From a virus (lineage: Duplodnaviria; Heunggongvirae; Uroviricota; Caudoviricetes): DNA of 10,152 nucleotides. Below the pieces are notes generated by a model. That model was given only the letters and a program-made list of their open reading frames with translations, did no database searches and had not been told where the DNA came from. Within the stretch, counting starts at the first letter, position 1; each line of letters opens with the position of its first letter. Positions 1 through 10,152 of this stretch are shown here, one piece after another. A program made the position numbers and the translations under genes. The stretch is from the IMG/VR virus record IMGVR_UViG_2534681939_000019; one strand, given 5' to 3'.

Positions 1-357
1 GTTCCTGATGGTGTGGCGATGACGGGTACCGGTAATCCGTTCCTGATGTCGTACTTCACTCAGACCACTGACGGCAGAGTGAATCTGATGCATCACAGGA
101 AAGCCGGAAACACGAAGCTGGGGGAGTTCGGCGATTACGGTAACGACTGGCAGACGCTGGAGCTGGTGTTCACCGCCGGCAGTGCCACGGTTACTCCGAA
201 ACTGAATGGAGTGGCTGGCCCGGCATTCCAGGTTATAAAAGACAGTATGACACTGGGACTGAATGCGCTGACGCTGACGGATGTTACAAAAAATGCAGCG
301 TATGGCGTTGAGATAGAAAGTCTGGTGCTGGAGATAAATGCACCGGCATCATCATAA
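1..357 (+). CDS. 3' end of an ORF that continues upstream of the window; unknown function, Thr/Gly/Asn-rich C-terminal domain
   Basis: Frame is open from nt 1 (VPDGVAMTGTGNPF...) to TAA at 355-357, so the gene is 5'-truncated by the window edge. No motif recognised. Confidence 0.4.
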   Translation, partial: VPDGVAMTGTGNPFLMSYFTQTTDGRVNLMHHRKAGNTKLGEFGDYGNDWQTLELVFTAGSATVTPKLNGVAGPAFQVIKDSMTLGLNALTLTDVTKNAAYGVEIESLVLEINAPASS

Positions 358-440
358 AAAGTGAGCCAGTCAAATGGAAGGTATCGTTAAACTCACCGGT
401 AGTGTCAGTGGGTCGTCTGAGACGCCTGCATGAGTTATCA

Positions 441-471
441 GAGCCATCAGTAGTTAACTGGTGGCTTTTTT
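441..471 (+). terminator. Rho-independent terminator-like hairpin just upstream of the holin gene (tR'-like position)
   Basis: Stem GCCATCAG (443-450) pairs with CTGGTGGC (458-465) with one G-U pair, 7-nt loop TAGTTAA, followed by TTTTTT (466-471); sits 36 nt before the holin ATG. Confidence 0.5.
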
Positions 472-506
472 ATTGTTGTCAGCTTCCGGATAACGGGAGA
501 CGGGGT

Positions 507-721
507 ATGTACCAGATGGAAAAAATCACAACGGGTGTGTCATACACCACGTCAGCGTGGGGACGGGATACTGGTTACTGCAGCTGCTGGACAAAGTCTC
601 TCCGTCCCAGTGGGTGGCGATAGGTGTGCTGGGGAGTCTGCTGTTTGGGCTGCTGACATATCTGACGAACCTGTATTTCAAGATTAAAGAAGACCGGCGT
701 AAGGCGGCGCGGGGAGAGTAA
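507..721 (+). pseudogene. S: Class II pinholin S (phage 21 S-like), reading frame disrupted by an apparent 1-bp deletion near 557
   Basis: From ATG 507 the frame gives [17 protein letters not shown] then runs to TAG 621-623; the -1 frame from 557 gives [54 protein letters not shown] ending TAA 719-721. Joined, this matches the phage 21 pinholin as recalled from memory. Dual-start MYQM motif. Confidence 0.8.
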
Positions 722-722
722 A

Positions 723-1070
723 GTGATGAAGAAAAAATACGAACTGGTTGTTAAAGGGATAAATAATTACCCGGATAAGATTACTGTTACTGTGGCACTG
801 GAAATTGGTGGGTATCCGTCACTGTTGTTGCCAGATGTGGCGATTAGTCTTGACCGTACTGAAGGTGCCACGCTGGAGTTTTACGAAGCTGAGGCGAAAA
901 AGCAGGCGAAGCAGTTTTTCATGGATGTTGCTGCCGGGTTATGTGAAGGGGATGGTCCGTTACCGGAAAAGCGTCCCGTAATTTTAGAGGCGCAGGATGT
1001 GTTGATAACCTACAGAGGAAAACTACCGGGAATAATTACGGGTTCTCTGAAGACTCCACCGCTGGCCTGA
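723..1070 (+). CDS. Hypothetical protein between holin and endolysin; possibly like the small DUF1327/YdfR-type proteins found at this position in lambdoid prophages
   Basis: 115-aa ORF with no hydrophobic segments; GTG 723 / ATG 726 immediately after the holin stop, with GGGGAGAG about 7 nt upstream of ATG 726. Family assignment is from memory and unverified. Confidence 0.55.
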   Translation: MMKKKYELVVKGINNYPDKITVTVALEIGGYPSLLLPDVAISLDRTEGATLEFYEAEAKKQAKQFFMDVAAGLCEGDGPLPEKRPVILEAQDVLITYRGKLPGIITGSLKTPPLA

Positions 1071-1120
1071 AGACTTAACATATCCAGGGATTTGAAATCG
1101 ATAAACCCTGATAAATATCC

Positions 1121-1655
1121 ATGAACGCAAAAATCAGATACGGCCTGTCGGCTGCCGTTCTGGCGCTGATTGCCGCAGGTGCGTCTGCGCCTGAAATCCT
1201 CGACCAGTTTCTGGATGAAAAGGAAGGTAACCACACCACAGCATACCGTGATGGTGCGGGTATCTGGACCATCTGCCGTGGAGCCACCCGGGTGGATGGT
1301 AAGCCTGTTATTCCTGGCATGAAGCTGTCGAAGGAAAAATGCGACCGGGTTAACGCCATTGAGCGTGATAAGGCGCTGGCATGGGTGGAGAAAAACATCA
1401 GAGTGCCACTGACCGAACCCCAGAAAGCGGGGATTGCGTCATTCTGTCCGTACAACATTGGCCCCGGTAAGTGTTTCCCGTCGACGTTTTACAGACGGAT
1501 TAATGCAGGAGATCGAAAAGGTGCCTGCGAAGCTATTACGCTGGTGGATTAAGGACGGTGGCAGGGACTGCCGTATTCGCTCAAATAACTGTTACGGTCA
1601 GGTATCCCGTCGTGACCAGGAGAGCGCGCTGGCGTGCTGGGGAATCGACAGATAA
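1121..1655 (+). pseudogene. R: SAR endolysin R (phage 21 R-like lysozyme), reading frame disrupted near 1538
   Basis: N-terminal signal-anchor-release segment (GLSAAVLALIAAGASA) then lysozyme core through GDRKGACEAI, after which this frame stops at 1550-1552 (TLVD*). The +1 frame continues RWWIKDGGRDCRIRSNNCYGQVSRRDQESALACWGIDR to TAA 1653-1655, matching the expected endolysin C-terminus. Confidence 0.8.
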
Positions 1656-1794
1656 GCAGAATATTTTGCTGAAAAATGAGGTTTGCTTACATGGATGGAT
1701 AACACGAAATCCTGCAAATTGGCAAAATGTAAGTGAATAAAGTCAAAACAGTTGTTTAACACTCAGGCACCGTAATGATGCCTTTGTCATTTCT

Positions 1795-1816
1795 GCGCAT
1801 CTCACGCGCATCTCAC
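1795..1816. repeat. Perfect tandem direct repeat, 2 x 11 bp (GCGCATCTCAC), in the intergenic region upstream of the antirepressor-like gene
   Basis: GCGCATCTCAC at 1795-1805 is repeated exactly at 1806-1816; lies about 110 bp upstream of ATG 1926. Confidence 0.6.
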
Positions 1817-1925
1817 AACACAGAACCTTTCAGGATGACCCTTGAGGATACCGGTTTGGCTGTCGGTGCCTTTCTGTGGGCTGGATTCCTGTGAGACAAG
1901 GTTCATCACTAAAAGGAAATAACCG

Positions 1926-2498
1926 ATGAATATGATGGCCGTGCCGTTTCACGGCAACTCTCTTTATGTAGTTAACCATAATGGCGAACCATACGTTCCC
2001 ATGAAACCTGTCGTTGCGGGGATGGGGCTGGCCTGGCAATCACAGTTGGCTAAGTTAAGACAGCGTTTTGCGTCAACTATAACGGAAATCGTTATGGTTG
2101 CTGAGGATGGGAAACAACGCAATATGGTGTCCATGCCACTTCGAAAACTTGCCGGCTGGCTACAAACCATTAATCCCAACAAAGTAAAACCCGAAATCCG
2201 CGATAAGGTCATCCGGTATCAGGAAGAGTGCGACGATGTTCTTTACGAGTACTGGACGAAGGGTTTTGTCGTTAATCCCCGTAAAATGAGCGTGATGGAA
2301 GAACTCAACCAGGCTTGTGCTGACATGAAACGGGATAAAAACATTGCCAGTGTGTTTGCTACCGGGCTGAATGAGTGGAAACAGGTTAAAGCCGCGCAAT
2401 GTATCAAAAAATCCGTAACGCTGGTAAATGAAGCGAATATGCTGATTGATTTTGTCCTGGCTGATACAGGCAAAGGGAAAATAACAAAGGCGGATTGA
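1926..2498 (+). CDS. Phage antirepressor-like protein (P22 Ant N-terminal-domain type)
   Basis: 190-aa ORF with SD AAGGAAAT 5 nt before the ATG; N-terminus VPFHGNSLYVVNHNGEPYVPMKPVVAGMGLAWQSQ ... PLRKLAGWLQTINPNKVKPEIRDKVIRYQEECDDVLYEYWTKG fits the antirepressor N-terminal domain pattern as recalled. Confidence 0.7.
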   Translation: MNMMAVPFHGNSLYVVNHNGEPYVPMKPVVAGMGLAWQSQLAKLRQRFASTITEIVMVAEDGKQRNMVSMPLRKLAGWLQTINPNKVKPEIRDKVIRYQEECDDVLYEYWTKGFVVNPRKMSVMEELNQACADMKRDKNIASVFATGLNEWKQVKAAQCIKKSVTLVNEANMLIDFVLADTGKGKITKAD

Positions 2499-2620
2499 TG
2501 GGGTGGCTAATGATATCAGATAAACTCATAACGCTGGTGAAGAGCCTCTGTGTACTTGTCGGCATTTCATTTTTAGTCATGCTGGTTGCCATTTTCTTTC
2601 CACCGCCTGGCGAGTCCTGA
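2498..2620 (+). CDS. Candidate small single-pass membrane protein (40 aa), translationally coupled to the antirepressor-like gene
   Basis: ATG 2498 overlaps the upstream TGA (ATGA); alternative ATG at 2510 in the same frame. Product MGWLMISDKLITLVKSLCVLVGISFLVMLVAIFFPPPGES has one hydrophobic helix; too short for the ORF track. Confidence 0.3.
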   Translation: MGWLMISDKLITLVKSLCVLVGISFLVMLVAIFFPPPGES

Positions 2621-2650
2621 CGTTATCGGGACTGGTGGGGTGAAAGAGAG

Positions 2651-3122
2651 ATGAACCGTGTTCTGTGTGTGGTGATTATTGTCATGGCGGTTGGACTGTG
2701 GTGCGCTGTGGCCTGGGCAACAAACCATTACCGTGACTACGCGCTCACCTACAAAGCGCAGCGCGATAAAAAAGCCAGAGAGACTGGAACAGGCGAATGC
2801 CACCATTACTGACATGCAGGTGCGCCAGCGTGATGTTGCTGCGCTCGATGCAAAATACTCGAGGGAATTAGCCGATGCGAGAGCTGAAAATGAAACTCTG
2901 CGTGCTGATGTTGCCGCTGGTCGTAAGCGCCTGCGGATCAACGCCACCTGCCCCGGTACCGTGCGTGAAGCCACCGGCACCTCCGGCGTGGGCAATGATG
3001 CCGCCGTCGAACTCTCTCCGGTTGCTGGACGAAACGTTCTCGGTATCAGAGACGGAATCATCAGCGACCAGGCAGCATTGAGAATGCTTCAGGAATATAT
3101 CCGCACTCAGTGTATTAACTAG
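2651..3122 (+). pseudogene. Rz: Rz i-spanin, reading frame disrupted by an apparent 1-bp insertion near 2783
   Basis: ATG 2651 gives MNRVLCVVIIVMAVGLWCAVAWATNHYRDYALTYKAQRDKKARE (transmembrane N-terminus, lambda Rz-like) then stops at 2810-2812. The +1 frame continues LEQANATITDMQVRQRDVAALDAKYSRELADARAENETLRADVAAGRKRL...EYIRTQCIN to TAG 3120-3122, matching lambda Rz. Confidence 0.8.
2875..3081 (+). CDS. Rz1: Rz1 o-spanin lipoprotein, embedded in the +1 frame of Rz
   Basis: MRELKMKLCVLMLPLVVSACGSTPPAPVPCVKPPAPPAWAMMPP: lipobox LVVSAC and proline-rich segment as in lambda Rz1; lies wholly inside Rz in the +1 frame. Confidence 0.7.
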   Translation: MRELKMKLCVLMLPLVVSACGSTPPAPVPCVKPPAPPAWAMMPPSNSLRLLDETFSVSETESSATRQH

Positions 3123-3146
3123 TATTTTTGTTATTCGGAGAATGCA

Positions 3147-3370
3147 TGAAGAAATTATTGGTAACCGTAAAGCCTTTTCAGGGAACAATTCCGTTCCGTA
3201 TTTTGCAGCGTGGTCGTGTTCTTGTTGAAGGTTCGTTCAGTGGTAAATGTACGCAATTACACTCCAGGACCTTTCAGGTGAATGCCACGAATGAAGAGCT
3301 AACCGTTGAGTGTACGATGAATGCCGCTAAATGCCGCATGGTATCCGCTGCATTACAGCCAGTGTGTTGA
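3147..3370 (+). CDS. Hypothetical small protein (74 aa)
   Basis: ATG 3147 (MKKLLVTVKPFQG...) has GGAGAA 6 nt upstream; it is the internal start of track ORF 3128..3370. No motif recognised and no signal peptide, so it is not Bor-like. Confidence 0.4.
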
Positions 3371-3726
3371 GCGACCTTATTATTCATGCGCGGTATTGTC
3401 GCCGTATTCCTGCATTAACAGAGACCGCAGCCCGACCGGGAGAATCCTCTGCGCGAGTGTGCGGGGATAATCAAAAACGATACACACCGGGGTTTACCGC
3501 GTTAACGGAGCGCGGCGTTGTCCCCTCATGGTCGCTGGTCCGGTGCGATGGTGGAAGAAGCCGGATGTTTATCACTATTAATTGATAACACAGAAATGGA
3601 TTCATTGGTTTTCAGCACGTTTTTGTATTCGTATTATTGAACATCTGTTTATTTTACTTTTAACATATTGATAATAAAAAGAGCTGTAAATCATTAGATG
3701 AGTCGATTTTGTCCGGGGAAGTTCAA

Positions 3727-3879
3727 ATGGATTTTATGCTGACGGTTTCTGGTGTGGTTATCCTGTCCATTGCTTATACTGCAGATAAATATGGCTGCCA
3801 TTTGTTATCACGTATTGGCGCTTATTGCTCGTTGATGCTGATTTCCTCGTCGCTTTTTTTGAGTAAGTTATATTAATTA
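3727..3879 (+). CDS. Candidate small hydrophobic protein (49 aa) inside an AT-rich island
   Basis: ATG 3727 with GGGGAAG 5 nt upstream; product MDFMLTVSGVVILSIAYTADKYGCHLLSRIGAYCSLMLISSSLFLSKLY has two hydrophobic stretches. Short and AT-rich, so it could be spurious. Confidence 0.25.
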
Positions 3880-4001
3880 TAACAAATAATTTTCTGTGTT
3901 TTTTCAGGCTATCCCGTCAGACGGGAAGCCTGTACTGCCGGGGGACGAATGGAAAACTGATGTGTCCGGTAAACTGTGTGTTCTTGTGAACACCATGTTA
4001 C

Positions 4002-4184
4002 TTAATTAATGTAATTCATACCCGAACGCTCTGTTGACAGCCTTCTTCTGCAGGCTTCAATAACCCACGCTGAAAAGTTACCGGAACCTTTATGTTCAAG
4101 GGCGATATTGATCTGTTCAATCATGTGATTGGGGAAACGGATATTGCGGATTGTGGTTCTGCGGGTCCGGTTTTTCGATGACAT
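4002..4184 (-). CDS. Small ribbon-helix-helix-like DNA-binding protein (YlcI/YnfO DUF3950-like)
   Basis: 60-aa minus-strand ORF MSSKNRTRRTTIRNIRFPNHMIEQINIALEHKGSGNFSAWVIEACRRRL...: basic N-terminus, a beta-strand-like RNIRF, then two helices. SD AGAGGAAAG lies just upstream of the ATG on the minus strand. Resemblance to K-12 prophage YlcI/YnfO is from memory. Confidence 0.6.
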   Translation of the reverse strand: MSSKNRTRRTTIRNIRFPNHMIEQINIALEHKGSGNFSAWVIEACRRRLSTERSGMNYIN

Positions 4185-4225
4185 TTTCTTTCCTCTGGTG
4201 ACAAGCTATATGGCGAGGATTTTAC

Positions 4226-4768
4226 ATGGCTGTGCTTCGTACGTTACCGGGCAGAATCAAAACTCTGAACACCCGGCGGATAAATGTCCTGAGGGGGGAA
4301 CAGCGTCGTGTCAGTGGCAGTGCCCGGGTTTCCCTCAAACGTCGTATCTGGCGGAGGGATGCCGGACACTGTTGTCTCTGTAGACGCGTGGTTGACCTTC
4401 GTGACAGTGAACTCGATCACCGCATTGCACTTCAGTTCGGTGGTGGTAATGAGGAGACGAACCTCTGGACCCTCTGTACTGAATGCCATCGCCAGAAGTC
4501 AGCGAGTGAAGCGGCGAGTGGTATGCCTGATCCGACGTTGCCTGAGCTTCCTGATGGCACGCTCAGGGCCGACGGAATCACTCGGCCTGTGACCACGACC
4601 CGGGGGGGGATCATCCGGCGAAAAAAAACGATCGCCCTGGACACCGCGCCCCCTCTCACGCAGAGAAAAAATTCCCGTTTCAGGGCAGTTAACATGTTAA
4701 CTGGCTGCCCGGGCATTTTTGCGGTTTTTATCTTTATTATTCAGTTTGTTGTGCGGAAAAAATGTTAA
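4226..4768 (+). CDS. HNH endonuclease (terminase-associated, HK97 gp74-like) with an unusually long C-terminal tail
   Basis: HNH motif HCCLCRRVVDLRDSELDHRIALQFGGGNEETNLWTLCTECHRQK; SD GAGGA 7 nt before ATG 4226; directly upstream of terS. The last 60-80 codons run through G8 and A8 homopolymers and into the palindrome array, so the true stop is uncertain. Confidence 0.75.
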   Translation: MAVLRTLPGRIKTLNTRRINVLRGEQRRVSGSARVSLKRRIWRRDAGHCCLCRRVVDLRDSELDHRIALQFGGGNEETNLWTLCTECHRQKSASEAASGMPDPTLPELPDGTLRADGITRPVTTTRGGIIRRKKTIALDTAPPLTQRKNSRFRAVNMLTGCPGIFAVFIFIIQFVVRKKC

Positions 4769-4814
4769 CAGGCTTTTTCAGCAAATGTTAACCAGGCAGC
4801 AGTTAACATTTGCG
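4683..4814. repeat. Array of GTTAAC-containing inverted repeats between HNH and terS; candidate cos / terminase recognition region
   Basis: Perfect 18-bp palindrome CAGTTAACATGTTAACTG at 4686-4703; AATGTTAACA at 4761-4770; 12-bp inverted arms GCAAATGTTAAC (4781-4792) and GTTAACATTTGC (4802-4813) around a 9-bp spacer. Five copies of ATGTTAAC-like half-sites lie within about 130 bp. Confidence 0.55.
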
Positions 4815-4883
4815 GCATGAGACGCCGGGAAAAATGGGCTGAACCATACCCGGCTGAGTGCGTTCTGGACCCGGGAGGAGGCT

Positions 4884-5447
4884 GTGCTGACAACGCAAAA
4901 ACGAAAATTTGCGCTGGCGCTCATGTCCGGGAAAAACAAAACAGCGTCAGCCATTGCCGCCGGTTATTCGGCGAAGACCGCCAGGGTTAAAGGCTCGCAG
5001 CTGGCAAAAGATCCTGAGGTGCTTGCGTTTATAGCCCGTAAACAATGCGAGACGGTGGAGGTGGATGAGGTTCCTGTTTACCGGCAGAAAAAATCAGAGC
5101 AGGAGGATAAACCCCGTCGCCGTGAGGCGGCTGCAATACCACAGCCGGACGAAAACAATCTGGAGATGCCACCGTCCGCGGTGATGTCTCCTGGTATTGA
5201 ATATATGGAGGATGGTCTTCCCGATCCGGTGAAAGCCATGGGGCGGATCCTGGTGGAAAACCTCTGCATTGATCCGAAACTGGCACTGGATGCGGCCTGG
5301 CGTCTGGCGCAGTTCACGCACCATAAAAAAGGGGATACCGGGAAAAAATCGGCAAAAGGTGATGCCGCGAAAAAAGCGGCTAACCGTTTTGCGGTGCCAC
5401 CGCCACCCCGACTGGTGGTGAATAACGATAATGAGGGCAACGGATGA
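4884..5447 (+). CDS. terS: Terminase small subunit (Terminase_2-like, N-terminal HTH)
   Basis: MLTTQKRKFALALMSGKNKTASAIAAGYSAKTARVKGSQLAKDPEVLAFI fits the TerS HTH pattern (AGYS.KTA...GS.L). GTG 4884 follows GGGAGGAGG (4873-4881); an in-frame ATG at 4833 is an alternative start without a good SD. Stop overlaps the terL start (ATGA at 5444-5447). Confidence 0.8.
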   Translation: MLTTQKRKFALALMSGKNKTASAIAAGYSAKTARVKGSQLAKDPEVLAFIARKQCETVEVDEVPVYRQKKSEQEDKPRRREAAAIPQPDENNLEMPPSAVMSPGIEYMEDGLPDPVKAMGRILVENLCIDPKLALDAAWRLAQFTHHKKGDTGKKSAKGDAAKKAANRFAVPPPPRLVVNNDNEGNG

Positions 5448-7105
5448 TACCTGTATGGAGCACAGCCTGCCCGGACTGGGCAGAGCGCCTGAAAAAGGGG
5501 CTGTCGATTATTCCGGATCCGATTTATCCGGACGAGGCCGCACATGCCCTGGCGATTTTTAAACAACTGCGGATTGTGGATGCACCTGGTAGCCCTACGT
5601 TCGGGGAGTCCTGTGCACCGTGGGTGTTTGACCTGGTGGCGGCCCTGTTTGGCTCCTACGATGCGCAGACCGGTGTACGCCATATCAAGGAAGTTTTTAT
5701 CCTTATCCCCAAGAAAAACAGCAAGTCCACGCTGGCCGCGGGGATCATGATGACTGCACTGTTACTGAACTGGCGGCAGGCGGCGGGTTACACGATTCTG
5801 GCCCCGACTGTGGAGGTGGCGGCCAACGCCTTCAACCCTGCCCGGGATATGGTACGACGGGACGATGATCTGGATGACCTCTGCCAGGTACAGACCCATA
5901 TCCGGACCATCACCCACCGGGTGACGGACACCACCCTGAAGGTGGTGGCAGCCGATCCGAATACGGTGTCCGGTATCAAGTCCGTGGGTACGCTGATTGA
6001 TGAGTTGTGGCTGTTTGGCAAGCAGTGCAAGGCGGAGGACATGTTACGTGAAGCCATAGGCGGCCTTGCCTCCCGCCCGGAAGGGTTTGTGGTGTATACG
6101 ACCACCCAGTCGAATGAACCGCCCGCCGGGGTGTTCAGACAGAAACTGCAGTACGCCCGGGATGTGCGCGACGGCAAAATTCATGATCCGCACTTTCTGC
6201 CGGTGATATTTGAACACCCTCCTGAAATGGTGGAAAGCGGGGCTAACCTGCTGATGGAAAACCTCGCCATGGTCAATCCGAATCTCGGCTATTCAGTGGA
6301 TGAGGCCTTTCTGTACCGGGAGTACCGTAAAGCCCGGGAAGCCGGTGAAGAGACATTCCGGGGGTTCATGTCAAAACACGCCAATGTGGAAATTGGTCTT
6401 GCCCTGCGCTCTGACCGCTGGGCGGGGGCTGATTTCTGGGAAGAGCAGGGCCGTTGTATCAGCCTGGACGATATCCTGCGTCGTGCTGATGTGGTGACGG
6501 TGGGGATTGACGGCGGAGGGCTGGATGATCTGCTGGGGATGTATGTGATTGGGCGTGACCGGGAGACCCGCGAATGGCTGGGCTGGGGCCATGCCTGGGC
6601 GCATGGAACCGCGGTGGTCAGACGGAAGAGTGAGGCATCCCGTTTTCAGGATTTTGTGGCCTGTGGAGACATGACGATTGTCCGTCGGGTCGGGGATGAC
6701 ACGGCGGAAGTGGCGGAATATGTGCGTCGCATTCATGAGGCTGAGTTACTGGACCATATCGGTATTGACCCGTCAGGTGTGGGGCAGATTCTGGATTCAC
6801 TGGCGGAAGCCGGGATCCCCGACGGAATTGTTGTGGGGATAAGCCAGGGCTGGAAGCTGGGCGGGGCCATTAAAACCACCGAGCGCAAACTGGCTGAGGG
6901 AGTACTGGTGCATGGTGGTCAGCCACTGATGGCCTGGTGCGTTGGCAATGCCCGGGTGGAGCCTAAAGGTAACGCTATCCTTATTACCAAACAGGCCAGC
7001 GGACGGGGGAAAATTGACCCGCTGATGGCGCTCTTCAATGCGGTCTCCCTGATGTCCCTTAACCCGGAACCGAAAAAGAAAGAATATGCGGTTTTTTTCA
7101 TATAA
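5444..7105 (+). CDS. terL: Terminase large subunit (ATPase plus nuclease)
   Basis: 553-aa ORF; P-loop-like LIPKKNSKST near the N-terminus, acidic patches in the ATPase region, C-terminal nuclease region with VTVGIDGGG and DPSG. Translationally coupled to terS. Confidence 0.9.
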   Translation: MIPVWSTACPDWAERLKKGLSIIPDPIYPDEAAHALAIFKQLRIVDAPGSPTFGESCAPWVFDLVAALFGSYDAQTGVRHIKEVFILIPKKNSKSTLAAGIMMTALLLNWRQAAGYTILAPTVEVAANAFNPARDMVRRDDDLDDLCQVQTHIRTITHRVTDTTLKVVAADPNTVSGIKSVGTLIDELWLFGKQCKAEDMLREAIGGLASRPEGFVVYTTTQSNEPPAGVFRQKLQYARDVRDGKIHDPHFLPVIFEHPPEMVESGANLLMENLAMVNPNLGYSVDEAFLYREYRKAREAGEETFRGFMSKHANVEIGLALRSDRWAGADFWEEQGRCISLDDILRRADVVTVGIDGGGLDDLLGMYVIGRDRETREWLGWGHAWAHGTAVVRRKSEASRFQDFVACGDMTIVRRVGDDTAEVAEYVRRIHEAELLDHIGIDPSGVGQILDSLAEAGIPDGIVVGISQGWKLGGAIKTTERKLAEGVLVHGGQPLMAWCVGNARVEPKGNAILITKQASGRGKIDPLMALFNAVSLMSLNPEPKKKEYAVFFI

Positions 7106-7130
7106 CCCTGTTCACACTGTAACCATCACG

Positions 7131-7155
7131 AACCGCTCCGGCGGTTTTTTATTTT
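7131..7155 (+). terminator. Small hairpin plus U-tract between terL and the protease gene (possible attenuator)
   Basis: AACCGC (7131-7136), loop TCCG, GCGGTT (7141-7146), then TTTTATTTT; overlaps the protease SD AGGAGG (7157-7162). Confidence 0.35.
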
Positions 7156-7167
7156 CAGGAGGCTGAT

Positions 7168-7746
7168 GTGACTCTTAAACGGGCCTGTTCCCTGCTGACG
7201 GTGAAATCCTTCAGCGAGGATGAACGGGTGATCACCGGGATTGCGTCAACGCCTTCTCCGGATCGGGATGGTGACATCCTGGAGCCGGAGGGGGCGGAGT
7301 TTGGCTGTGCGATCCCGTTTCTCTGGCAGCATGACTATTCCCGTCCGGTGGGCCAGTGTACGGTACGCCGGGTCAGTGAAGGTCTGGAAATCACGGCAAC
7401 ACTGGTGAAGCCCGTACCGGATATGCCGTCGCAACTGGCTGCCCGGCTGGATGAGGCCTGGGCGGCCATTAAGACCGGGCTGGTCAGGGGGCTGTCCGTG
7501 GGCTTCCGTCCCCATGAATACACCTCTCTGGACGGAGGCGGACTGCATTTTCTGCGCTGGGAACTGATGGAGGTGTCTGCCGTCACCGTGCCCGCGAATG
7601 CGGAATGCACCATCCGGACCATTAAATCTTACGACCGCCCGTTTTCTGCCGCGTCCGGCAACCGGAAACCGGTGGTGAAAATCGCATCTTCTGCCGGCGC
7701 TGCGGCACAGTCAACAACCGCTTTTCATAAGGAAAAGACAGAATGA
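7168..7746 (+). CDS. HK97-family prohead protease (peptidase S78/U35)
   Basis: GTG 7168 with AGGAGG 5 nt upstream; VITGIASTPSPDRDGDILEPEG ... FLWQHD ... GLSVGFRPHEY ... MEVSAVTVPANAECTI is the typical motif order of the HK97 protease family. Confidence 0.85.
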   Translation: MTLKRACSLLTVKSFSEDERVITGIASTPSPDRDGDILEPEGAEFGCAIPFLWQHDYSRPVGQCTVRRVSEGLEITATLVKPVPDMPSQLAARLDEAWAAIKTGLVRGLSVGFRPHEYTSLDGGGLHFLRWELMEVSAVTVPANAECTIRTIKSYDRPFSAASGNRKPVVKIASSAGAAAQSTTAFHKEKTE

Positions 7747-7812
7747 ATATTGGCGAACAGATAAAAGTTTTGAAACAAGCGTGCGGCGCTGGCAGCCTCC
7801 CTTGAGGAGGTC

Positions 7813-9146: not shown

Positions 9147-9368
9147 ATGGCAAAGATCCGATATCTGCAGGGCACGCATGATGCCCGGCCCGGGGATATC
9201 CGGGATGTCGCACAGCCGTGTGCGGAGGTGCTGGTTCGCCTGAGGAAGGCGGAGTACATCACAGCGCGACGTCCGGCGGGTCAGAAAAAGAAACATGATG
9301 CGGAGCATAGCGAATGTGGAACTTTTTGCGACGAACCCGAAAAAACCAGAAATCAGGACGTGATGTAA
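9147..9368 (+). CDS. Hypothetical small protein (73 aa) between capsid and portal genes
   Basis: Track ORF MAKIRYLQGTHDARPGDIRDVAQPCAEVLVRLRKAEYI...; weak SD; overlaps the predicted portal start by about 55 nt, so it may be shorter or not real. Confidence 0.35.
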   Translation: MAKIRYLQGTHDARPGDIRDVAQPCAEVLVRLRKAEYITARRPAGQKKKHDAEHSECGTFCDEPEKTRNQDVM

Positions 9369-10152
9369 AAGAGGCGGGCTGGACCAGCCTGTTTCAGGCG
9401 GTGGCTGAGCCCTTTGCCGGCGCCTGGCAGCAGGGTGTGAAAGCCGATCCGGAAAGTGTCCTCTCCTTTCATGCGGTGTTTGCATGCATTTCGCTGATAT
9501 CCCAGGATATCGCCAAAATGCGGCTGCGTCTTATGCAGACGGATGCGCATGGGATACGCAGGGAAACGCGCCGGGGGGATATTGCCCGCCTCTGTCGTCG
9601 TCCCAACGCCCAGCAGAACCGCATCCAGTTTTTTGAACTGTGGCTGAACGCCAAACTGCGTCATGGCAATACGGTGGTGCTGAAAATCCGTAATGCCCGG
9701 GGGCAGATCAAAGAACTGCGTATTCTGGACTGGAGCCGGGTTGAACCTCTGGTGGCGGATGACGGCGAGGTGTTCTACCGCATCACACCGGACCGGAACT
9801 GCGGGATCACGGAGGCGGTGACGGTGCCTGCCAGGGAAGTGATCCACGACCGGTTTAACTGTTTTTTTCATCCGCTTATAGGACTGCCGCCGGTGTATGC
9901 CGCCGGGCTGGCGGCCACGCAGGGGCATCATATTCAGGAAAATTCGACGTCTTTTTTCAGAAATGGCGGCAGGCCGTCCGGGGTGATTGAGATCCCCGGC
10001 AGTATTACGGAAGAAAATGCGAAAAAACTGAAGAGCAACTGGGACAGCGGGTATACAGGCGAAAATGCGGGGAAAACGGCCATTCTGAGCAACGGGGCAA
10101 AATACAACCCCACGACGTTTTCACCTGTGGATGCGCAGACGGTGGAACAACT
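9314..10152 (+). CDS. Portal protein (HK97-family), 5' part; continues beyond the window end
   Basis: Frame is open from ATG 9314 to the window end with no stop: MWNFLRRTRKNQKSGRDVKEAGWTSLFQ ... SFHAVFACISLISQDIAKMRLRL ... FFRNGGRPSGVIEIPGSITEENAKKLKSNWDSGYTGENAGKTAILSNGAKYNPTTFSPVDAQTVEQ. The FRNGxRPSG and ENAGK blocks are characteristic of portal proteins. Confidence 0.85.
   Translation, partial: MWNFLRRTRKNQKSGRDVKEAGWTSLFQAVAEPFAGAWQQGVKADPESVLSFHAVFACISLISQDIAKMRLRLMQTDAHGIRRETRRGDIARLCRRPNAQQNRIQFFELWLNAKLRHGNTVVLKIRNARGQIKELRILDWSRVEPLVADDGEVFYRITPDRNCGITEAVTVPAREVIHDRFNCFFHPLIGLPPVYAAGLAATQGHHIQENSTSFFRNGGRPSGVIEIPGSITEENAKKLKSNWDSGYTGENAGKTAILSNGAKYNPTTFSPVDAQTVEQ

Follow-up and report, generated by a model that had tools for sequence, protein, structure and literature searches.

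A frame-broken phage 21-type pinholin gene in a draft prophage contig of Escherichia coli O157 and its probable origin in a draft assembly error

Among the known systems, that of phage 21 closely resembles the lysis locus studied here. In this phage, the pinholin builds up in the inner membrane and its TMD1 exits the bilayer, while TMD2 forms small heptameric pores, and the depolarisation that they cause frees and activates a membrane-tethered SAR endolysin (bioRxiv 10.1101/2021.04.20.440580). The S, R and Rz genes of phage 21 are contiguous, and its record (OL657228.1) annotates both starts of S, as antipinholin and pinholin. Cassettes pairing a pinholin with a SAR endolysin are ordinary and already known in EHEC lambdoid prophages.

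The window, that is, the whole stretch of 10,152 bp that was analyzed, is contig AIFJ01000017.1 of the E. coli DEC 3F (493/89) draft (assembly GCA_000249355.2). The accession prefix AIFJ is listed as "DEC 3F (493/89)", O157 non-motile, and the neighbouring prefix AIFI of the same accession series, which is considered below, as "DEC 3E" (strain table, PMC4959244). The window covers the late part of an Stx-phage-like, lambdoid prophage of E. coli O157, a sequence of which each genome carries many near-identical copies: the lysis cassette was found at up to 15 matching places per genome, and S at 11–12 matching places in NZ_CP038412.1, the finished genome of O157:H7 strain 493/89. The gene order (SASA esterase, S, YdfR, R, antirepressor, small ORF, Rz) is shared by the lambdoid and Stx prophages of EHEC and by phage BP-4795. 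With this phage the cassette has 95% identity, and the flanking DNA is 99.5–99.8% identical to that of the EHEC lambdoid and Stx prophages in which the class II holin WP_000284517.1 is encoded. The window begins (1–357) within a carbohydrate esterase gene of the SASA family, of which it contains the 3' end, encoding the DUF6645 C-terminal region and closing with a stop at 355–357; in those related EHEC copies that were read, S is likewise preceded by a SASA esterase gene. The features of the S region are as follows.

495–500, + strand: Shine-Dalgarno-like GGGAGA (direct reading), with GGAG 7 nt before ATG 507.
507–721, + strand: S gene of the S21 pinholin family, with dual starts at Met1 and Met4; 215 nt as written, 216 nt in the relatives.
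507–623, + strand: frame-0 open reading frame of 38 aa, made up of 17 authentic and 21 out-of-frame residues, with a TAG stop at 621–623.
555–563, + strand: frameshift site, GCGTGGGGA in the window versus GCGGTGGGGA in the relatives, one G of a GG doublet being lost at 557/558.
557–721, + strand: residual open reading frame with a GTG start, 54 aa, covering TMD2 together with the end of TMD1 before it and the charged C-terminus after it; match to PF04971 with E = 6.2e-26.

Beyond the break, the rest of the pinholin is carried by the -1 frame (one base back), in which 54 residues are read up to a TAA stop at 719–721. When the window was aligned with its nearest relatives, exactly one base was found to be absent (CAGCGTGGGG in the window versus CAGCGGTGGGG in the relatives). 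An earlier note on this DNA had described a frame broken by a 1-bp deletion, which the frame-0 stop, the course of the -1 frame and the base absent in comparison with the relatives all bear out. The deletion had been attributed to a G-run: the place was right, the run was not, since what is missing is one G of the GG doublet that immediately precedes the T (557/558), outside the GGGG run itself (GCGGTGGGG giving GCGTGGGG). The intact sequence predicted in that note, GCGGTGGGG with its one extra G, is that of all the relatives.

The products expected from the gene as written differ from those that had been proposed. A 73-aa product had been announced, whereas translation from ATG 507 gives 38 aa; the 73 aa correspond to a mechanical open reading frame starting at an upstream GTG (402), in the intergenic stretch 3' of the esterase stop. 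Nor is this the only product encoded, as had been stated, given that the 54-aa GTG frame (557–721), which retains TMD2, is also there; the gene callers report this frame on the contig, and the look-up in the gene index returned it at the same coordinates on AIFJ01000017.1. The 38-aa product contains no hydrophobic segment (the top 15-residue Kyte-Doolittle mean is -0.13), gave zero Pfam matches in the profile search and is absent from the gene index. One uninterrupted frame covering both TMDs is absent in the gene as written and present only once one G is restored.

Restoring this G (GCGTGGGG to GCGGTGGGG) yields a protein of 71 aa identical to the translation of the holin gene in L001, which carries the RefSeq name WP_000284517.1. 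The repaired protein matches the profile PF04971 (Bacteriophage P21 holin S, Phage_holin_2_1) with E = 8.5e-33 and 112.6 bits, as against a cut-off of 26, and the match covers positions 1–63 of the 64 in the profile. On these sequence comparisons, the resemblance to a pinholin is beyond chance and the gene is assigned to the S21 family, in agreement with the identification of a phage-21-type pinholin in the earlier note. The likeness to phage 21 S (S21-68/S21-71; OL657228.1) extends over the full length without a gap, with 75% identity over 71 aa. Both proteins have Met1 and Met4, a weakly hydrophobic TMD1 rich in Gly, Ala, Ser and Thr, a strongly hydrophobic TMD2 and a charged tail beginning KI(K/R). 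TMD1 (residues 7–28 of the repaired protein) has a mean Kyte-Doolittle value of 0.75 and a G/A/S/T content of 50%, the corresponding values in S21 being 0.52 and 55%, and TMD2 (residues 36–58) has a mean of 1.59. The MYQMEK of the repaired protein aligns with the MKSMDK of S21, which is the dual-start motif (Met1 antiholin, Met4 holin). The N-terminus is however MYQM instead of the MKSM of S21-71, and the longer Met1 form therefore does not have Lys2, the residue bringing the extra positive charge of S21-71. The gene in the window also differs from phage 21 S in that, as written, it is split by a 1-bp deletion. In comparison with the prophages carrying WP_000284517.1 (for example those of O157:H7 493/89 and O145 RM11626-C1, and phage BP-4795), the sole difference consists of the private single-base indels of the contig.

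Programmed recoding is another conceivable reading. In this case the full-length 71-aa protein would be obtained from the sequence as written, either because ribosomes shift by -1 at GCG-TGG or because of slippage during transcription: if the G of GCG is read twice, the exact wild-type ...TSAVGTGYW is obtained. The site, TCA GCG TGG GGA, contains however neither an X XXY YYZ slippery heptamer nor a long homopolymer, and the two-frame structure is present in no homologue, the relatives all being single-frame. The probability of recoding is next to negligible, and programmed frameshifting was ruled out for want of both a slippery site and conservation.

As in phage 21, the pinholin is partnered by a lysozyme with an N-terminal SAR-like segment. 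The contiguity of the phage 21 genes is not found here: S and R are separated by a DUF1327 (YdfR) gene, and an antirepressor-like gene lies between R and Rz.

726–1070, + strand: YdfR/DUF1327 gene between S and R, intact (PF07041, E = 1.7e-46), equal in length to that of L003.
1121–1655, + strand: R gene, coding for a lysozyme whose N-terminal segment is SAR-like; its frame is shifted by an additional, private A at 1538.

The insertion in R reads ATTACGC in the window versus ATTCGC in the relatives. As written, R encodes 143 aa instead of 177 aa, and deleting the A at 1538 restores a SAR-type endolysin. The repaired R protein matches PF00959 (Pfam), its residues 7–27 (YGLSAAVLALIAAGASAPEIL) have a G/A/S/T content of 52%, and it is 32% identical to the SAR endolysin of phage 21, the Glu/Asp/Thr spacing being equal in the aligned N-terminal block. 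Judging from these sequence features, the partner of S would be a SAR endolysin and not a cytoplasmic one. By analogy with phage 21, the S product can be taken to be a membrane-depolarising timer that releases and activates the SAR endolysin encoded at 1121–1655.

If the deletion were real, some holin function might be kept through initiation at GTG 557, giving a 54-aa truncated pinholin equipped with the aromatic patch YWLLQL and TMD2, which would form pinholes without the delay based on TMD1. This frame exists and matches PF04971 (see above), and N-terminal truncations retaining the aromatic patch still form pores (bioRxiv 10.1101/2021.04.20.440580), so that the 54-aa product could work in principle. 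By direct reading, however, no purine-rich ribosome-binding site was found in the 15 nt before GTG 557 (ACACCACGTCAGC), and since the upstream open reading frame ends at 623, past position 557, termination-reinitiation cannot bring ribosomes to this GTG. The partner endolysin gene R is moreover frameshifted too as written, and the proposal requires a real deletion, which the other evidence makes unlikely. A functional truncated pinholin is thus highly improbable.

The best matches to the window were found in NZ_CP038412.1, at two different prophages, and both of these copies, when read, contained an intact 216-nt holin gene (WP_000284517.1) and the intact 61-mer. A 60-mer spanning the deletion matched at 3,728 places, distributed over 717 records and 711 complete genomes of E. 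coli. The deletion occurred at none of these 3,728 matching places, each record's best place showing less than 99% identity; the matches listed have an identity of 98.4%, which corresponds to one gap. The exact pattern of the deleted allele gave 0 matches in IMG/VR, the GTDB species representatives and the JGI metagenomes, the GTDB scan being a weak test in that each species is represented there by one genome, whereas the intact allele gave at least 120 matches in IMG/VR. All the homologues encode the pinholin in a single frame.

A genuine mutation is the obvious alternative to an error: the DEC 3F stock would harbor a decaying cryptic prophage copy, in which small indels have put the lysis cassette (S, R, Rz) and further late genes out of action, only the 38-aa fragment without TMD2 would be made from S, and that prophage would have no pinholin. 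Defective lambdoid prophages are indeed common in O157, and finished copies also carry genes annotated as frameshifted (antiterminator, portal). The allele is however absent from the 3,728 sites in complete genomes, those of the record named 493/89 included, as well as from three large collections. A pseudogene mutation should be reproduced in independent sequence of the strain or lineage, and this was not the case here.

The gene index look-up for the 54-aa product returned 18 contigs, ten places being shown. Among these ten, the only other mid-contig copy giving this product was AIFI01000030.1 (DEC 3E), which has its own private 1-bp insertion, an extra A located about 10 bp upstream in the same holin gene (CACCAACG versus CACCACG; L125 position 5991). 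Over its full length, AIFI01000030.1 is otherwise 99.9% identical to finished O157:H7 genomes with intact holins, the match being one base shorter. No other indels were observed in its coding regions in comparison with L003. A genuine mutation in DEC 3F sits poorly with a sister draft having a different private indel within the same 50 nt. That the two nearby indels of DEC 3F and DEC 3E mark a biological hotspot was considered and rejected; this proximity was not counted because the 54-aa look-up mainly recovers frameshifts in the approximately 50 nt upstream of GTG 557.

The remaining eight of the ten places shown among the 18 contigs are truncations at contig edges which carry the intact CAGCGGTGGGG. 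They belong to eight unrelated short-read E. coli drafts (L134–L141), whose contigs end at the equivalent of window positions 540–552, i.e., 6–18 nt upstream of GTG 557. The fact that these truncations all start at 540–552 indicates that the stretch of S around the indels is a repeat junction which assemblers find hard. The gene callers emit an identical 54-aa truncated "holin" from these contig edges.

The frame break in S is one of many in the contig. In comparison with L003, the closest full-length relative, 14 insertions and 7 deletions of one base each were counted in the window. Of these 21 indels, 16 change the length of a homopolymer, the other five being non-homopolymer insertions. 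Apart from those in S and R, they are located as follows.

2399–2783, + strand: private indel cluster, with insertions at 2399, 2406 and 2417 in the antirepressor-like gene, a deletion in a T-run at 2596, and insertions at 2695, 2713, 2715 and 2783 in Rz.
3853–4602, no strand assigned: further private indels, with T8 shortened to T7 at 3853, insertions at 3973, 3984 and 4008, and insertions at 4583, 4596 and 4602 at the 3' end of HNH.
7144–7772, + strand: private deletions, with T7 shortened to T6 at 7144 and deletions at 7738, 7761 and 7772 splitting the protease-capsid gene.

These indels are strongly clustered: 10 of the 20 spacings are no greater than 40 bp, which was reached in 0 of 20,000 random placements. 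Same-direction clusters were found at 2399–2417, 2695–2783, 3973–4008, 4583–4602 and 7738–7772; four of them hold three indels each, and that at 2695–2783 holds four. In the clusters at 2399–2417, 4583–4602 and 7738–7772 the indels sum to +3 or -3, and only a short stretch is scrambled before the original frame is regained; in the capsid cluster (7738–7772), a stop nevertheless arises at 7744–7746. The frame is broken in 8 of the 15 genes (S, R, a 48-aa ORF, Rz, a 46-aa ORF, YlcI/YnfO, HNH and the protease-capsid gene), and six residues of the antirepressor-like gene are scrambled by the indels. In addition to the S allele, three further indel contexts (R 1538, the 2399–2417 cluster and the 7761/7772 pair) gave 0 matches each in IMG/VR.

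Substitutions are rare in comparison. When positions 1–6400 were compared in 400-bp tiles with the best-matching reference, 4 substitutions and 16 gaps were counted, and positions 1–2991 showed 5 substitutions and 10 indels versus L001. In natural decay, substitutions are expected to be at least as common as indels and to affect independent sites, and the contig does not show this spectrum. In the mutation accumulation work on E. coli by Lee and colleagues (PNAS, 2012), spontaneous substitutions reportedly outnumbered indels about ten to one. The presence of 16 gaps as compared with only 4 substitutions over 6.4 kb, along with the grouping of the indels in tight same-direction clusters of three or four, argues against a genuine mutation, which, on all the evidence, is unlikely.

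The pattern resembles instead that of draft-assembly indel artefacts in collapsed repeat contigs, in which private indels far outnumber private substitutions, affect mostly homopolymers and form local same-direction clusters. The sequence is likewise multi-copy, and the short-read drafts break inside S too. The five indels of the window that are not homopolymer changes are unlike plain artefacts of this kind.

The observed frame break, gene identity, contig origin, absence of the allele elsewhere and indel pattern are best explained if the G at 557/558 was lost through faulty base calling or consensus building in the draft assembly and not through a mutation in the bacterium. This is very probably the case, an error of sequencing or assembly as the cause being what we infer. 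The deletion is taken to be an artefact because the finished genome bearing the same name is intact, the allele occurs nowhere else, clustered indels extend over the whole contig, a sister draft has its own private indel and S contains a repeat junction. The missing G would thus be one of about 21 single-base length errors in AIFJ01000017.1. The abolition of holin function deduced in the earlier note is not supported, in view of the intact finished 493/89 genome, the absence of the deletion from every complete E. coli genome and the 20 other private indels; GCGGTGGGG, which according to that note would speak against a dead holin if it were read at the site, is what an independent finished sequence of the same strain name contains.

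Three points weigh against a draft error. Prophage lysis genes do decay in nature; the five non-homopolymer insertions (of the 21 indels) go beyond simple homopolymer miscalling; and no finished 493/89 prophage corresponds to the contig over its whole length, 6600–7750 and 9200–9600 being divergent. In these two stretches (approximately 6600–7750 and 9200–9600), the window differs by 2–4% from the closest sequences found, the comparison extending, for 6550–7800, to all complete E. coli genomes (that deposited as 493/89 among them) and, for both stretches, to the fetched loci. The differences in TerL fall mostly at third codon positions, which indicates that they reflect real allelic divergence and not errors. 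An exact mosaic of two prophage copies of NZ_CP038412.1, which were the copies covered by this test, accounts for about 1–6400 of the contig, apart from the indels and a few substitutions; it fails at 6600–7750 and 9200–9600. The divergent stretches may correspond to a prophage segment absent from the finished record, to a consensus of paralogues that is collapsed or chimeric at the SNP level, or to a difference in prophage content between the two stocks named 493/89.

The equivalent of the portal gene, which lies downstream of the capsid gene, runs in the window from about 9314 to the end of the window. Three finished prophage copies, which come from two strains, have this gene annotated as "frameshifted" (L001 17455–19031, L003 10807–13145 and L004 10813–13151). 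The portal frameshift recurring in finished genomes could be real, and either conserved or programmed.

The fact that 6600–7750 matches no finished genome exactly also speaks for a genuine mutation, as the contig could be a copy missing from the finished 493/89 record. In a more specific form of this alternative, a prophage copy that finished 493/89 lacks is really present in DEC 3F, and an indel-prone process has riddled its whole late operon with clustered single-base indels, with almost no substitutions. This is very unlikely; if it were true, the damage would extend to S, R, Rz, HNH and the capsid gene, and the lysis cassette would have been silenced in a manner unlike ordinary prophage decay. 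A real deletion would add another defective lysis gene to those of cryptic EHEC prophages, and would as such be unremarkable.

A draft error, the reading preferred here, calls for caution with other prophages of this kind, since old draft contigs of multi-copy prophage regions may carry many single-base indels resembling those of pseudogenes. The truncated products, such as the 54-aa "holin" and the 143-aa "lysozyme", reach the protein databases via the gene callers. In scans for frameshifted phage genes, the contig-wide ratio of indels to substitutions in comparison with close relatives should therefore come first.
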